Assembly: GCA_963781885.1 (NCBI GenBank)
Contig: CAWAHW010000007.1
Coordinates: 128,001 to 192,000, forward strand
Source: an uncultured Spirochaetota bacterium
GTDB lineage: Bacteria > Spirochaetota > Spirochaetia > SZUA-6 > Fen-1364
Direction: 5' to 3'
DNA: 64,000 nucleotides
The translations under genes were made by a program, and so were the position numbers. Under the pieces are notes generated by a model. It was not told the DNA's origin and made no database searches. It was given only the letters and a program-made list of their open reading frames with translations. Position 1 is the first letter of the stretch, and each line of letters begins with the position of its first letter. Below, piece by piece: positions 24,152 through 30,272 of this stretch.

Positions 24152-26371
24152 ATGAGAAGGGTCTTCGCGGTGGTGGTCTGCGCGTGTGTCGTCGCCCTGT
24201 CGGGGTGCGGCACATTGGGAACAACCGGCAGCGAGCAGGCGTCGGTGAAAGCCGCGAGCGTCGCGGCGCAGTGGGAGTATTTCCCGGACTGGAAGACGCT
24301 CGGATTGAAGCTCGTCGGCACGCCCCCCCGCGACGTGAGCGGTCCCGTCGAGGTCGGCGTGACGACGGACAAGGACGTCTCGCTCGTCGGATACCTCACG
24401 GACCTGTCCACCGGCAAGGAGCTGCCGCAAGGGAGCTACCCGGTCCACGACGGCGCGACCTGGAGGCTTGCCGCGGAGTTCCCGAAGGCCGGACAGTACA
24501 GCTTCACCCTCTTCGGCAAGCTGAAAAGCACGGCAGGCGACACCTACGCCGCCCTTGCACGCGCGAGCTTCGTCGTCACGGGGGACCCTGCGTCCAACTG
24601 GGCGGTCTTCCCCGGATTCACGGCGCACGGGCTCTCCGTCGTCACGGTGCCCCCGCTCGCCGTCAACGACGAGGCGCAGATCGCGCTGTCCACGGGGGAG
24701 GACCTCGAGTTCGGCTGGATCTTCTACGACAAGACGAACGACAGCTATCCCAGCGGGCAGGTCCGTGCGCAGGTGACCGGATCGCGTGTCTCCTTCACCG
24801 TCTCCTTCCCCGAGACGGCCGACTATTCGCTGCAGCTGGAATGCCGGCCGTCGGGCGCCGATGACAACGCCTGGGAATCGATCGCCATGGCGCGCTTCAA
24901 GGCCACGGTGAGCGCTGCGAACATCAAGGTGCCCGATAACTGGAATGTGACCCCCGGCCTGTTCAAAAGGCTCGGGGTCGCCGTCGTCTCCGCGCCCCCG
25001 CGCGCGGTCACGGACCAGGCGGACATCGTCCTGTCCTCCAAGGTGAAAATGTCCCTCGGCTACAACCTCACCAACCATACCACCGGCAAGGACACCCAGG
25101 TCATGAAGGACGTCGTGGAGATCGACCAGCAGGACCTGGAGCAGCACATCACCCTCTTCTTCCCGGATCCCGGCGAGTACGAGCTGTGGCTCTGGGCAAA
25201 GGCGGAAGGCGACAAGGATGATGCGGTGCTTGCACGCGTGAGCTTCACGGCTACGCCGAGCCCCGCGCCGAAGGTGCCCGACAACTGGGAGGTGGCGCCG
25301 CGCTTCAAGACATACGGCCTGTCCGTGCTCTCCTCATCGCCGCGGGAGACAGGGGAGGAGCTCTCCGTCGTCATCGGCGTGCCCGAGGGCTGGGACGGCT
25401 ACGCCTCCCTCCGCAACAAGGAGGGCACGAGCTCTGTTGGCGCCATGGCGTCCGACATCGTCGGCAAGGAACAGCGGATCTCCGCGGTTTTTCCCAGGAG
25501 CGGTGAATACATCCTGTCCATAAGCGGCAAGCTGGGAACCGAGAAATACTCCCGCACTCTTGCGACGGCGACATTCGTCGTGAAGGTGGATGAAAGCCTG
25601 TCGCCCTACCGGCTGTGGCGCGTCAGCGGGAGCTGGCCGCGCGTGCCCGTGTCCAAGGTGCAGCTCGTGCAGGAGCCCTGGGAGCCGTTCGTCGACTACC
25701 CCAGCTTCGATGAATACCGCACGGGCGTCCTCACCGACGCCCTCACCGTCGCCGCGGCGCAGGGAAACGTCTCCTTCGCCAAGGGCACGACGCTCACATT
25801 CGGGCACGACTACGGCAGCGAGTTCGCGGTTGACGCGTTGTCGGGGAATCTCGCCAAGGATGTGACCATCAAGGCGAACGGCACCACGCTCCTCTTTTCC
25901 GCGGGCTCGCCCTTCGTTGTCGCGGAGAAGCAGGCGGTCGGCCAGCTCATCCGGGACACGAAGATCGTCCTGGAAGGAAACACGCTCCTGGCGCCCAAGG
26001 GCAGCCGCATCTCCTACTGGGAATCGGGGATCTCCGAGATCGTGCCGGCCGGCAAGCCGACGTTGACGGTCGGCGCCAAGGTATACGAGGTGAATGGCGG
26101 CGTGCAGCTCGATGCCGGCGCGAAGGAAGGCTCCCCCCTGACGGTGAAGATCAAGACGGCACGGGACTACACGTTGAAGATCGGCACGAACAACAGCTTC
26201 ATCCTGCCGGCGGGCTCGCTGCTCAGCTTCACGAAGCAGGCGGTGACCGATGTCGTGTTCGCCAAGGATGCGAAGGTGACGCTTGCGGGCGCGGCCGATA
26301 CCGTGACGGCGGGTCAGGGGATCAGGTTCGACGACAAGGGAGTGGCGACAAAATACACCGCCGAGGAATGA
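24152..26371 (+). CDS. Lipoprotein with four tandem ~115-aa Ig-like repeats and a beta-rich C-terminal region
   Basis: Lipobox LSGC; repeats W..P.F...GL.V...FP..G.Y.L...K. Confidence 0.8.
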   Translation: MRRVFAVVVCACVVALSGCGTLGTTGSEQASVKAASVAAQWEYFPDWKTLGLKLVGTPPRDVSGPVEVGVTTDKDVSLVGYLTDLSTGKELPQGSYPVHDGATWRLAAEFPKAGQYSFTLFGKLKSTAGDTYAALARASFVVTGDPASNWAVFPGFTAHGLSVVTVPPLAVNDEAQIALSTGEDLEFGWIFYDKTNDSYPSGQVRAQVTGSRVSFTVSFPETADYSLQLECRPSGADDNAWESIAMARFKATVSAANIKVPDNWNVTPGLFKRLGVAVVSAPPRAVTDQADIVLSSKVKMSLGYNLTNHTTGKDTQVMKDVVEIDQQDLEQHITLFFPDPGEYELWLWAKAEGDKDDAVLARVSFTATPSPAPKVPDNWEVAPRFKTYGLSVLSSSPRETGEELSVVIGVPEGWDGYASLRNKEGTSSVGAMASDIVGKEQRISAVFPRSGEYILSISGKLGTEKYSRTLATATFVVKVDESLSPYRLWRVSGSWPRVPVSKVQLVQEPWEPFVDYPSFDEYRTGVLTDALTVAAAQGNVSFAKGTTLTFGHDYGSEFAVDALSGNLAKDVTIKANGTTLLFSAGSPFVVAEKQAVGQLIRDTKIVLEGNTLLAPKGSRISYWESGISEIVPAGKPTLTVGAKVYEVNGGVQLDAGAKEGSPLTVKIKTARDYTLKIGTNNSFILPAGSLLSFTKQAVTDVVFAKDAKVTLAGAADTVTAGQGIRFDDKGVATKYTAEE

Positions 26372-27135
26372 CGCGACCGGCGCGGCGGAGGGCGCTGCTC
26401 TCCGCCGTCGCCTTCCTGTGCGCCCTCTCCGCCGGCGCCGATGACGCCCGGCAGGGCTTCGGAGACCGCTACGCGGATGCCGTGCACTACGTGGAGTCAC
26501 GCGCCGACGTATGGTGCAGCCGTCTGGGCGGCATGGGCGCCGACGCGCGCGTGCTCGTGCCGGCCGTCTTTCCCGAGATCCTCAAGTACACGTCCTTCCG
26601 CGACGACATCGAGACGCTCGGCCTCGCCGTGCTCTACGTGTCGGGGGGGACGGCGCGGGGCAACTTCTCCATCGGCCGCTTCCAGATGAAGCCGTCGTTC
26701 GTGGAGGCCCTGGAGGCACAGGTCGCACGCCGTCCCGATCTTCCCGCGACGCTCCGCGCCATCACGGGCTTTCCGGCCGGCGCGACGGAGAAGGACAGGC
26801 GCACGATCCGCATCGAGCGCATTCGCAGCGAACAGTGGCAGCTCACGTACCTGGGCGCCTTCTATGCCGTGGTGGCTTCCCGCTTCGACCTGGGCGGTCT
26901 TTCCGTCGAGGATCAGGTCAGGTTCGTGGCCGCGGCCTACAACCGCGGGTTCTGGTATTCCGCGGAGGAGATCCGGCGCGCCGAGGGCTTTCGCATCTTC
27001 CCGCATGGCTCCCGGGGCAGCCCCGGGCCCTACCGGTACACCGACATCGCCGTGGACTTCTTCAAGAGCACCTGGGACGCGATATATGCCGCGCGGGCGG
27101 GCGTCTCCGGCGGCGCCGCGCGCGCACGGCCATAG
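26368..27135 (+). CDS. Secreted lysozyme/lytic-transglycosylase-like protein
   Basis: Signal peptide; FPE, SIGRFQMK and AAYNRG resemble SLT motifs I-III. Confidence 0.55.
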   Translation: MTRPARRRALLSAVAFLCALSAGADDARQGFGDRYADAVHYVESRADVWCSRLGGMGADARVLVPAVFPEILKYTSFRDDIETLGLAVLYVSGGTARGNFSIGRFQMKPSFVEALEAQVARRPDLPATLRAITGFPAGATEKDRRTIRIERIRSEQWQLTYLGAFYAVVASRFDLGGLSVEDQVRFVAAAYNRGFWYSAEEIRRAEGFRIFPHGSRGSPGPYRYTDIAVDFFKSTWDAIYAARAGVSGGAARARP

Positions 27136-27224
27136 CACCCGCGCGCACGCCTCAGCAGTTCTGATATGATGTGCCCCCGTCAAGCTCTAAAAGCCTCCTT
27201 TTTTCTTTAGAACTCCTTCTGAAC

Positions 27225-27430
27225 ATCGAGGCCAACCCGAAGAGATGGAGAAGGGCATAACCGACGATCGACCAGTCTGATATGCGTGGATTGGTTACCG
27301 CAGGCCAATGTGATCGTCAGGAGCTTGCCTCCGTCTCATTACCAGGATCAGACCATAGTCTGCCTGCAGAACCGCTCGAGGATTCTCCGTTCGCCACGAA
27401 CCTTCCCCATCCGTCCCGGTTGCCTCGATT
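27225..27430 (-). ncRNA. Predicted bridge RNA (seekRNA) in the IS110 3' non-coding end
   Basis: Nested stems with two large internal loops; loop segments match the insertion site (27368-27376, 27334-27340) and the circle junction (27275-27284). Confidence 0.8.
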
Positions 27431-27445
27431 GCATACGCAGCCTCC

Positions 27446-28540
27446 TCAAGCCACCCGATCAACCATCGCGCCCCACAGGAACCCCGAGAGCTCTCGCGCC
27501 ACCGCCGTCACCACGGTCTGAGAAGCTTTGCCGCGAAAAAGCAGACGCAGAAATTTCTTGTTTAGCCGCCTGCACGCACGGTTGGCATAGCTGACCAAGG
27601 ATGGAGAAAGACCCTCGCGTCGTTTCATCAACCGAGTGCTACTGGGATGGTAGCTGCGGTATTGCCAGGCGGCCTCCACCAGAAGTTTGCGCAGGTGGGA
27701 ATTACCCGCCTTTGTGATTCCTCCCAAGCGCCTCTTGTTTCCGCTGGATCGCTCGGAGGGCACCAACCCCAAAAACGCCATGAATTGATCCGCACCTGCA
27801 AAGCGCCGAAAGTCCCCGATCTCCGAAACAAGCGACAAGGCGATCAGCGTCTCCACGCCCTTGAACGCCTTCAGCTTGGCTACAGGTTCGGCATAGCTTT
27901 TACCTGCCGCGATCTCTTCGATGCCCGCCTTGATCCGCCGACACTTCTCCTCCAGCTCGTCGACTTGGCAGCGGTACTCGGTGAGAGTCAACTGCTCCAG
28001 CGGATCCTCCAACTCAAGAGCCTGCAACCATGCTCGATGCGGCTGCGTCCATGTGGCTCCTTGTTCATAACGTATCCGCCTCCGCAGAAGAAAACCCAGC
28101 ACGCGCTGCTTGGCCTTGCGCAGATCGGACTTCATGTCCTCCAGCATTCGTAGATAGTCGCGAACCGCTTCGTCTTCCCGCGTGGGTACATGAACGGCAC
28201 TCACATCCCCGCTCCGAAGTGCGCGAGCAAGCATCACAGCGTCCCTTCTATCGGTCTTTATGCGATCTCCCGGACGATGTGGAATCTGAGACGGAGCCAG
28301 CACCGCACACGGCACACCCAGTTCCGTCAATTGTCGATACAGGGAATACCCTAGACATCCCGCCTCGTAGCATGTCACCAGGTCCCCCGCGGACTGGAGC
28401 TTCTTGAAATAGGCCTGGATTACGCTCTTTTCATTGCGAATCACCGTCTCGGCCCTCGGCTTCTGATCGCGCCCGCTCAGGATCGCTATGGCGATCTTTT
28501 CTTTGTCGACGTCCATGCCAACGTAATGTACAATACCCAT
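27446..28540 (-). CDS. IS110 DEDD recombinase/transposase
   Basis: VGMDV, YEAG, KTDRRDA (DEDD RuvC-like); EIGDFRRF, GLVPSERSSG (catalytic Ser region), GITKAGN, AVARELS. Confidence 0.96.
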   Translation of the reverse strand: MGIVHYVGMDVDKEKIAIAILSGRDQKPRAETVIRNEKSVIQAYFKKLQSAGDLVTCYEAGCLGYSLYRQLTELGVPCAVLAPSQIPHRPGDRIKTDRRDAVMLARALRSGDVSAVHVPTREDEAVRDYLRMLEDMKSDLRKAKQRVLGFLLRRRIRYEQGATWTQPHRAWLQALELEDPLEQLTLTEYRCQVDELEEKCRRIKAGIEEIAAGKSYAEPVAKLKAFKGVETLIALSLVSEIGDFRRFAGADQFMAFLGLVPSERSSGNKRRLGGITKAGNSHLRKLLVEAAWQYRSYHPSSTRLMKRREGLSPSLVSYANRACRRLNKKFLRLLFRGKASQTVVTAVARELSGFLWGAMVDRVA

Positions 28541-28646
28541 GACTGCCCCCTTGTGCGTTGTTTGTGGCGTGCCGCATCGAGACGCCAATCTCATGATACG
28601 GCCGATCCACGTTGTAGCAACCACCTGGGGGCACTTCATATTGTCT

Positions 28647-28758
28647 CATTTTGGACCATCCTGAGCTTTGGAAAAGGTATGCACACTTTGAAAACGGCCC
28701 TTTCATCATGGGACAAAATGAGAACTGCATCATTCAGTCACCATGCTGAGAATTGCTG
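28647..28758. repeat. Right part of a ~120-bp inverted-repeat (MITE-like) element interrupted by the IS110; left part at 27153-27162
   Basis: Rejoined empty site GCAGTTCTCATTTTG is the exact reverse complement of CAAAATGAGAACTGC (28714-28728); a third related copy TGAGAATTGCTG at 28747-28758. Confidence 0.75.
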
Positions 28759-28811
28759 GGTCCCGCCTGACTCGGCTTGACCGTGGGCGCGAGGATTGGT
28801 AGCGTCCTTCC

Positions 28812-30272
28812 ATGCGTCGTCTGACCCTATTCAGCCTTGGCGTGCTCCTGCTCGCGAGCCTTGCGGCATGCTCCTACAACTACCGCATCGACATTCAGCC
28901 GCCGGATGCGCGCGTGAGCGCGAACGGCGCGGCCGTCGAAACCGGCAAAAACGTGTCGCTCCACGGCCGCTCGCTCGCCGTCACCGCGCTTCACGACGGG
29001 TATACCGACTTCAGCGGCTCCTATCGCCATCCCTTCTGGTTCGGGGAGAGGAAGATCTCCATCCAGATGGAGAGACGGAGCTACGCCGTCCAGGTTTCCG
29101 TGCTCGGTCCCCCGGTCCCCTATACGCTGGACGCGACGCTTTCGGGAACGACCCCGTTCTCCGGGAGTCTTGCCTACGGGGAGCACCACCTCGTGGTGAC
29201 GGAGCCCGATAAGACGCAGAAGACGATCGATTTCGCCGTGACCGGCCCCGGCCCCTACGTTTTCCGCCCCCAGAGCGCGCCGATCCCCCTCCAGCCCGTC
29301 GGTGTTTTCGACTGCGGCCTCCAGCCCAAGCAGATCCTCTTTTCCCCCGACGACAAGGAGCTTTTCATCCCGCTCCTGAACGGGAAGGGCTTCCAGATCC
29401 TGAACCTTTCCACGCGCACCATGCAGACGGTGGAGGTGGAGAAGTTCGGCAAGGACGTCGGCTTCGTGGAGGACATCATCATCCCCCGCGCGCCGAATGC
29501 GGCGGACAAGGACTATCGGCTGCTCGTGTCGCAGATGACCACCGCGCGGGTGCACGAGTACAAGCTGAAGCCTGACGGCAGCGTGGAATATGTCCGTTCC
29601 TTCAAGACGGGCGGGAATTGGTCCAAGGTCATCGCCTGGCTGCCGCAGCAGGACCTCCTGGCGGTGTCCAACTGGCTCAGCAACGACGTGACCCTCCTGG
29701 ACTACACGACCGCGAATGTCGTGCGAAAGCTCGGCGGTCTGGATGTGCCGCGCGGCATGGCCTTTACGCCGGACGGCAAGTCGCTGGCCGTGGCGTCCTT
29801 CAATGGCGGCTTCATCACCGAGTTCGACACGCAGACCTGGACGCGGACAAGGACGATCCAGCGTCCTGCCGGCGCCGCGCCGCGGCACATCGTCATCACC
29901 CAGGACGGCAAGTACTACTACGTGAGCGACATGGCGCGCGACGAGGTCCTGAAGATCGACCAGGCGACGTTCACCATCGTCCACGCCTACCCGACCCACT
30001 CGAATACCAACAGCATCGATCTGTCATCCGATGGACGGCTGCTCGCTATTTCCTGCCGCGGTCCGAACAATCCCGGCGGCTACGAGCTGAAAAGCCCCTC
30101 GGGAGGCTGGGTCATGATCTACGATACCCGCAACGACACCCTCCTGGCGACCATTGAAGGCGGGCTCCAGCCCACGGGGCTCGACATCAGCAACGATGAC
30201 AAGCTGCTTGCCTTCACCAATTTCCAGGACCCGACCGTGGAGATCTATTCGCTGGAAGGATTGCTGAAGTAG
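28812..30272 (+). CDS. Lipoprotein with PEGA-like domains and YncE/YVTN-type beta-propeller
   Basis: Lipobox LAAC; repeats QPKQILFSPD, PRGMAFTPDG, PRHIVITQDG, QPTGLDIS. Confidence 0.85.
   Translation: MRRLTLFSLGVLLLASLAACSYNYRIDIQPPDARVSANGAAVETGKNVSLHGRSLAVTALHDGYTDFSGSYRHPFWFGERKISIQMERRSYAVQVSVLGPPVPYTLDATLSGTTPFSGSLAYGEHHLVVTEPDKTQKTIDFAVTGPGPYVFRPQSAPIPLQPVGVFDCGLQPKQILFSPDDKELFIPLLNGKGFQILNLSTRTMQTVEVEKFGKDVGFVEDIIIPRAPNAADKDYRLLVSQMTTARVHEYKLKPDGSVEYVRSFKTGGNWSKVIAWLPQQDLLAVSNWLSNDVTLLDYTTANVVRKLGGLDVPRGMAFTPDGKSLAVASFNGGFITEFDTQTWTRTRTIQRPAGAAPRHIVITQDGKYYYVSDMARDEVLKIDQATFTIVHAYPTHSNTNSIDLSSDGRLLAISCRGPNNPGGYELKSPSGGWVMIYDTRNDTLLATIEGGLQPTGLDISNDDKLLAFTNFQDPTVEIYSLEGLLK

Follow-up and report, generated by a model that had tools for sequence, protein, structure and literature searches.

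An IS1111-type insertion sequence that occupies one site in the terminal repeat of a MITE, and its predicted guide RNA, in an uncultured Spirochaetota bacterium

What does an insertion sequence (IS) read when it settles, copy after copy, at a single position inside another mobile element? The question is raised by a locus in a 64,000-nt stretch of DNA from an uncultured Spirochaetota bacterium (GenBank assembly GCA_963781885.1, contig CAWAHW010000007.1, positions 128,001 to 192,000; hereafter the window, meaning the whole stretch). Here an IS of 1484 bp interrupts one end of a miniature inverted-repeat transposable element (MITE) of 122 bp. The answer, in our view very probably the right one, is that an active or recently active IS of the IS1111 type reads a 13-nt site in the left terminal repeat of the MITE by means of its DEDD recombinase and an RNA encoded downstream of the recombinase gene. 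Positions are those of the whole window and refer to the + strand unless marked. The orientation of the transposase gene (tnp) of the IS is the minus strand, and the genome to which the window belongs is called G000.

The first clue is what the removal of the IS leaves behind. On the + strand the order is ...CCTCAGCAGTTCT / GATATGATGTGCCCCC ... GGGGGCACTTCATATTGTCT / CATTTTGGACC..., with slashes at the edges of the IS. The left flank at 27153-27162 reads CAGCAGTTCT and the sequence from 28647 on reads CATTTTGGACC. Taking out 27163-28646 gives GCAGTTCTCATTTTG, whose exact reverse complement, CAAAATGAGAACTGC, stands at 28714-28728. An earlier note on this DNA had reported this perfect 15-bp inverse, and recomputation returns the same 15/15; base composition predicts 0.002 occurrences of the restored 15-mer genome-wide. 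The note's count of 19/21 on extension did not survive, since the ungapped register gives 17/21. The related third copy that it placed at 28747-28758 (TGAGAATTGCTG) is real, its reverse complement agreeing at 11/12 with CAGCAGTTCTCA, the 12 bases that open the element. The IS boundaries also stand where the note had put them, and they are fixed independently by the ends of seven full copies, one internally deleted copy and one copy cut by a run of N, together with three intact empty targets. The cut point can be shifted leftward by 0-3 nt with the same product, because the 2-nt core (CT, + strand) is repeated and the third base, T, is coincidental.

The IS itself has the following parts.

27163-28646, minus strand: IS1111-type insertion sequence (IS110 family), 1484 bp, 57% GC; genome copies have identical ends and flanks
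27446-28540, minus strand: gene for a DEDD transposase/recombinase of 364 amino acids, from Pfam, NCBIfam and IS621 alignment
28627-28639, minus strand: left-end subterminal inverted repeat ATGAAGTGCCCCC (tnp orientation), 12/13 against the right-end repeat
28640-28646, minus strand: left terminal extension AGACAAT, 7 nt, outside the left subterminal repeat
27166-27178, minus strand: right-end subterminal inverted repeat GGGGGCACATCAT (tnp orientation), 13 bp
27163-27165, minus strand: right terminal extension ATC, 3 nt, outside the right subterminal repeat
27163-27445, minus strand: non-coding region downstream of tnp, at the right end, 283 nt; core conserved in relatives

That the element is an IS110, as the earlier note held, is borne out by protein families. 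The transposase scores 49.9 bits against Pfam PF01548 (DEDD_Tnp_IS110; cutoff 29), 78.6 bits against PF02371 (Transposase_20; cutoff 21.3) and 237 bits against NCBIfam NF033542, 'IS110 family RNA-guided transposase' (cutoff 140). Its D/E/D/D positions and SG motif align with the IS621 transposase (8wt6), and the only solved structures related to it are the transposases of IS621 (E = 1e-7) and ISCro4 (E = 1e-6). All the IS110-family traits looked for were found: the DEDD and Transposase_20 domains with the SG motif, specificity of site and orientation, and repetition of nothing but the core. Within the family, the passages of Siddiquee et al. on this division (PMC11187229) set the IS1111 type apart from the IS110 type by subterminal repeats of 11-13 bp, extensions of 7 and 3 nt, a non-coding region downstream of the gene and the motif GL-P----S(T)G. 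Each of these traits is present here. The subterminal repeats ATGAAGTGCCCCC and ATGATGTGCCCCC match at 12/13, the extensions are 7 and 3 nt long, 283 non-coding nucleotides lie downstream of tnp and 106 upstream, and GLVPSERSSG in the translation, near the C terminus, fits the motif. The element belongs to the IS1111 subgroup of the IS110 family, assigned by these defining features rather than by a tree.

How strict is the choice of site? G000 (4.64 Mb in seven contigs, 63% GC, 16,000 bases masked as N) holds nine copies of the IS: seven full, one cut by a masked N run and one with an internal deletion. Between any two full copies, at most 2 of the 1484 positions differ. All nine have the flanks CAGCAGTTCT and CATTTTG and a single orientation (the left flank of the copy cut at IS position 265, by the N run at about 159000-160000 of contig C4, is unreadable), and all nine insertions restore the 13-mer AATGAGAACTGCT. 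Comparison with relatives identifies the repeated core as AG in gene orientation, CT on the + strand, and there is no duplication beyond these 2 nt. The earlier note had proposed that the IS is aimed at the terminal repeat of an AT-rich MITE-like element of about 120 bp. It had named as the outcome fatal to this a repeat unique in the genome with other IS copies in unrelated sequence. The reverse is found: 9/9 IS copies sit in the same site of a MITE that is present 13 times. The deleted copy (C2:775982-776863) also lies at this MITE position. Missing from it are the 5' half of tnp and the left subterminal repeat; the last 5 nt of the left end remain, as does the right end together with its RNA module.

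The host of these insertions is laid out in the window as follows.

27153-27162, + strand: outer 10 bp of the MITE left terminal repeat, CAGCAGTTCT, severed by the IS; from the flanks of IS copies
28647-28758, + strand: rest of the MITE, 112 bp (122 bp in total, 44% GC); from 13 genome copies
28714-28728, + strand: unoccupied inverted copy of the target inside the MITE, CAAAATGAGAACTGC, pairing with the left terminal repeat as a long hairpin
28747-28758, + strand: MITE right terminal repeat TGAGAATTGCTG, adjoining the 9-bp target duplication
27144-27152, + strand: left copy of the 9-bp target duplication of the MITE, degenerate, 6/9 against 28760-28768

This is a true MITE: short, non-coding, with terminal inverted repeats, target duplications of fixed length and many copies, and present in some genomes and absent from others. 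Copies are 119-122 bp long with 44% GC in a genome of 63%, and of the 13 in G000 nine are occupied by the IS and four are empty. The remaining 12 copies are 73-93% identical to that in the window and fall into two subfamilies that differ in their central part. Both flanks are readable in 12 copies, and in 10 of these the 9-bp direct repeats agree at 8/9 or more (the window copy has 6/9); in one copy there is a longer direct repeat and the boundary is shifted. The ends are CAGCAGTTCTCA... and ...TGAGAATTGCTG, with 11/12 agreement over the first 12 bp. The earlier note was right about the inverted-repeat element and wrong about its second terminal arm, which it took to be the perfect 15-bp inverse. 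The true right terminal repeat is 28747-28758, next to the 9-bp duplication, and the 15-bp inverse is internal. This internal arm and the left end form a long hairpin: for the DNA of two empty copies the + strand folds give z = -4.1 and -5.1, and for the first of the two the minus strand gives z = -3.4. The MITE and the IS are enclosed by two + strand genes, 26368-27135 and 28812-30272.

The order of events can be read from related genomes, 40 of which were searched. Two of the same genus carry the MITE, G005 with 21 matches and G019 with 11, and G015 has one weak partial match (E = 0.003, 48 nt). A near-identical IS was found in none of the 40, G005 (only 69% complete) and G019 included. Four of the 40, neither G005 nor G019 among them, carry only relatives of the IS, as partial matches of 68-85% identity. 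At the orthologous locus of G005 (86% identity) there is no MITE, no IS and a single copy of the 9 bp that are duplicated in the window; therefore the MITE came first and the IS later. Since the IS copies are near-identical while the host MITEs diverge, belong to two subfamilies and have their own duplications, the IS insertions are independent and recent.

How, then, is the site recognised? The 283-nt region downstream of tnp contains a predicted RNA of the bridge or seekRNA kind, with these parts.

27320-27388, minus strand: predicted target-binding module, from RNAalifold and single-sequence folds
27385-27388 with 27320-27323, minus strand: predicted stem P0 (RNAalifold), with a compensatory G-C to C-G change
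27378-27381 with 27328-27331, minus strand: predicted stem P1 (RNAalifold), then an internal loop, P2 and a P3 hairpin
27368-27376, minus strand: predicted 5' loop guide AGCGGUUCU, 9/9 against AG-AACTGCT (core and right flank, tnp orientation) with one G.T wobble
27335-27340, minus strand: predicted 3' loop guide AAUGAG, in the same sense as left flank and core, AATG-AG
27263-27318, minus strand: second conserved stem-loop module, candidate for donor binding, with stem 27312-27318/27263-27269
27275-27284, minus strand: CAUAUCAGAC within the second module, identical to the abutted right end, core and left end

All nine sequences, folded singly, take the common shape of P0, P1, loop, P2 and P3. 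As AAUGAG has the same sense as the left flank and core, it is complementary to the bottom strand. The earlier note had called the IS 'programmed' to hit its target, and what can be added is that matching bases do exist, in a predicted bridge/seekRNA-like loop at 27335-27376 (minus strand). The RNA would be made and bound by the recombinase. The guide at 27368-27376 is not a perfect complement of the target, the G.T wobble being at position 6; the perfectly complementary, wobble-free site AATGAGAACCGCT has 0 exact matches in G000. In the second module the stem has a compensatory C-G to U-A change; this module is the putative donor-side part, with IS ends that do not vary among relatives. A hexamer TTGAC(A/G), judged by eye, stands 15-16 nt from the right end in all ten sequences and could serve as the -35 element of a circle-junction promoter. 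Such a promoter is described in PMC11187229. The fold of the whole right end has z = -1.7, and a consistent fold is confined to the conserved module. A first k-mer screen had proposed AGTTCT at IS position 1433 (about 27209-27214) as the guide for the top strand; it was dropped, as relatives do not conserve this part of the sequence and a better fit is given by the conserved loop at 27368-27376.

If the loops are guides, they should change when the target changes. Nine relatives (L001-L009) were compared, with 59-67% amino acid identity (45% for L006), from assemblies labelled Spirochaetota, Pirellulales, Terriglobales, NC10 and Deferrisomatales. They share with the window element the same IS ends and a conserved stretch of 127-131 nt in the downstream region. 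The 5' loop pairs with the element's own core and next seven right-flank bases at 9/9 in the window element, L002, L003, L004, L005 and L007, which is six sequences with four targets. L006 adds a fifth target at 8/9, and L008, whose flank is cut off, is not scorable. The right flanks of the seven pairing sequences are AGAACTGCT, AGAATTCCT, AGAATTGCT, AGTTCAGTT and AGGCTCTTA. The 3' loop of the relatives reads ATTAG, TAGAG or ATGAG, tracking their own left flanks and core over 4-6 nt. In other words, loop and flank covary while scaffold and ends stay the same.

Some of these relatives are of interest in themselves. L004, L005, L007 and L008 (also L017 and L018) have near-identical RNA modules and one target, ..ACATAG-AG-TTCAGTTGC.., under Terriglobales, Spirochaetota and NC10 labels. 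This points either to an IS that, with its target repeat, has recently crossed between phyla or to errors in binning. Beside L001-L007 no inverted copy of the target site was found.

The next question is which of the sites on offer are used. The 12-mer AATGAGAACTGC has 17 intact occurrences in G000, where 0.21 are expected: 13 in internal arms, three at empty left ends and one outside the MITE. The fourth empty MITE has a 1-nt deletion within the site. Intact sites with at most one mismatch to AATGAGAACTGCT number 21 and none is occupied; four are exact, 13 are internal arms ending in A (12) or G (1), and four are others. The only exact 13-mer outside a MITE, also unoccupied, is at C4:720262 (L015, L066), and a single-copy gene for a DDE_Tnp_1_4 transposase (452 bits) begins just downstream of it. 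Thus 9/13 terminal arms are occupied versus 0/13 internal arms (Fisher p = 4.6e-4). The two arms are identical over 15 bp, which takes in the whole 6-nt left match and eight of the nine paired bases on the right. Their sole difference within the stretch covered by the loops is at right-half position 9, T versus A or G, and position 9 of the guide is paired in 8/8 scorable relatives. We infer that the T-to-A difference at this position is most likely what spares the internal arm. The earlier note's expectation that the second arm is a target too, open to a second insertion or to inversion, finds no support: 0/13 are occupied and the ninth base paired by the guide differs. Position 9 may be an all-or-none determinant; that a second layer decides, such as hairpin geometry or the unique DNA beyond the MITE tip, is rather unlikely but would, if true, give the IS1111 group its first hint of a gate like the stem-loop one reported for ISPpu10. 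In G019 the internal arm mostly has T at position 9 (L041, L044, L053, L055, L058), and so both arms would match the full 13-mer there.

Several observations weigh against the explanation that we propose. In L001 the right flank makes only 5/9 pairs and a single wobble with its own loop, and in L009 there is no fit at all. On the 3' side of the loop the match extends over just 4-6 nt and is poorer in L003 and L006. The donor-side reading draws on one 10-nt identity without covariation, as relatives share their ends. No Rfam family was found for the IS region at E <= 1 (26500-29500 scanned). Four intact exact 13-mers, three at MITE ends and one elsewhere, are unoccupied; therefore occupancy is incomplete. 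Finally, no circle junction, empty allele or inversion was seen in contigs of four DNA runs, in which parts without coverage are uninformative. In L001 the left flank does fit its own loop; the misfit on the right could reflect an off-target (half-match) insertion or a later rearrangement. The sole Rfam match, a snoRNA at 27083-27141, outside the IS, was set aside as chance (20.8 bits versus a gathering score of 59).

With these points in the balance, the very probable course of events is as follows. The MITE first inserted between two genes, creating a 9-bp duplication. Later, in a recent burst, the IS landed 8-10 bp inside the left end of the MITE, splitting its terminal repeat. The recombinase, with the RNA from the 283-nt downstream region, would recognise AATG-AG-AACTGCT in tnp orientation, which is AGCAGTT-CT-CATT on the + strand. 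Insertion is at the AG/CT core, always the same way round, and nothing more than the core is duplicated. Movement would proceed through a circle whose joined ends rebuild a promoter.

What if the protein reads the target directly, as DNA sequence or as a hairpin, and the non-coding region matches it by coincidence or for a different purpose? The target does lie in one arm of a strong hairpin on either strand, and arms identical over 15 bp are used nine times versus never. A structural determinant beside a paired site is moreover reported for the IS110 element ISPpu10 (bioRxiv 10.64898/2026.03.19.712850). However, the loop bases track the flanks in relatives with the same scaffold and ends, and RNA guidance has been shown experimentally for four IS1111 members (PMC11187229). 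A structural gate could work alongside the RNA without taking its place. We therefore hold it to be very unlikely that the protein does the reading by itself.

Perhaps the IS chose its site only once. An IS-plus-MITE composite might have formed a single time and then spread as a unit, carried by a DDE transposase acting on the MITE ends, or copied between MITEs through gene conversion or homologous recombination. Every occupied MITE is bordered by a 9-bp duplication of its own, which is expected if the whole unit transposed, and a DDE IS with similar terminal repeats is present in three copies. Yet the hosts do not look like one travelling sequence. The IS copies differ at no more than 2/1484 nt, whereas the MITE halves around them are 73-93% identical to the window copy and come from both subfamilies; a composite would carry one MITE sequence. 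In addition, a MITE with the IS in its left terminal repeat, 8-10 bp from the tip, should no longer have a working left end, and empty MITEs bear the same site intact. A composite is thus even less probable than direct reading by the protein. The last alternative, in which a terminator, a regulatory site or some other ordinary hairpin stands here with no mobile element involved, has in its favour an intergenic position between two + strand genes and the long hairpin, and it is refuted to the point of being negligible because of the 13 dispersed copies with 9-bp duplications, while MITE copies also lie at other places in two other genomes and the orthologous locus of G005 has none.

The ends of the MITE recur in a second mobile element, a 1653-bp DDE IS with three copies in G000 (C1:278052-279704, C4:220865-222517 and C6:77551-79203; L013, L014). 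It has the ends CAGCAATTCGCATTATGG... and ...CCATAGTTAGAATTGCTG, 9-bp duplications and an open reading frame of 437 amino acids. Its ends (CAGCAATTC...TGG) resemble those of the MITE and the duplications have the same length, and this IS is likely to be the autonomous partner of the MITE. Its protein is likely to be of the DDE fold class. The matches are below threshold, with 20.0 bits for PF01609 (DDE_Tnp_1; cutoff 23) and 20.1 for PF13808 (DDE_Tnp_1_assoc; cutoff 32.3), and the curated IS4- and ISAs1-type scores are not reached (16.9 bits against the IS4 model NF033592, cutoff 115).

Two side observations concern this DDE IS. The copy on C1 directly adjoins an IS-occupied MITE, and the 9 bp GCTTCTCGG stand to the left of the 1653-bp IS, between it and the MITE, and to the right of the MITE; two elements have therefore used one site in turn. 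Furthermore, the target of L003 (Pirellulales; L003:1390-1402 and right flank) shares the 12-mer TTAGAATTGCTG with the right end of the 1653-bp IS. This prompted the idea that the whole IS clade is aimed at the ends of one DDE IS family, which is left as an observation. No DDE gene was found beside L001-L007 (Pfam, 0 families among the three flanking open reading frames tested).

Insertion sequences that live in the repeats of other elements are not without precedent. Partridge and Hall are said to have described, in 2003, how IS4321 and IS5075 of the IS1111 family insert in the 38-bp terminal repeats of Tn21-family transposons. The likeness is in the fixed position inside the terminal repeat of another transposon, the single orientation and the splitting of the repeat. 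The host there is a large plasmid transposon of the Tn3 family, whereas here it is a chromosomal 120-bp MITE of a DDE IS, and of three related repeats in the MITE the IS occupies just one.

In its build the element resembles ISEc11, ISKpn4, ISPst6 and ISPa11, which, according to Siddiquee et al. (2024; PMC11187229), have a DEDD protein with GL-P----SG, subterminal repeats, extensions and the downstream region. What that paper states of IS1111 seekRNAs also applies here: one site, one orientation, two guides that overlap at the core in the same order (the complement of the top strand 5' of that of the bottom strand) and retargeting by the loops alone, which occurs naturally between ISEc11 and ISXne4. 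Unlike in those members, the target here is a MITE end and the guide RNA is predicted, likened to theirs by published features; the transposase has 364 amino acids versus the 330-350 that the paper's family description gives. Durrant et al. (PMC11208160) likewise place the bridge RNAs of IS1111 elements in the right end.

The bridge recombinases of IS621 and the IS110 group, as characterised by Durrant et al. (2024; PMC11208160; structures 8wt6-8wt9), share the superfamily, a CT core, a donor loop and repeats as targets, there the repetitive extragenic palindromic (REP) sequences. Elements of the IS110 group, however, encode the RNA upstream of the gene and have the two target matches in reverse order, whereas in the IS1111-type element here the RNA lies downstream; the proteins show little similarity (E = 1e-7). 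According to PMC12288879 and bioRxiv 10.64898/2026.03.19.712850, ISPpu9 and ISPpu10 of Pseudomonas putida are similarly confined to one repeated intergenic palindrome. For ISPpu10 the preprint describes a stem-loop next to the site that contributes to specificity, to which the arm choice seen here may be a parallel. Those targets are REP-like in the same accounts, whereas here the target is a transposon end with target duplications. A narrow full-text literature search found no description of an IS110/IS1111 element aimed at a MITE end.

Current understanding is not overturned by any of this: it is a known mechanism in a clean new example. Its worth is that the site, the core, the ends, the predicted guide loops and the naturally retargeted relatives can all be read from sequence alone. 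The 9-to-0 choice between arms, together with the tolerated G.T wobble, is useful for studies of the specificity of bridge and seekRNA recombinases. For the family, the list of repeats that serve as targets (REP sequences, attC sites and Tn21 ends) is extended to the end of a MITE, and therefore to a case in which one mobile element lives on another and disables its end.

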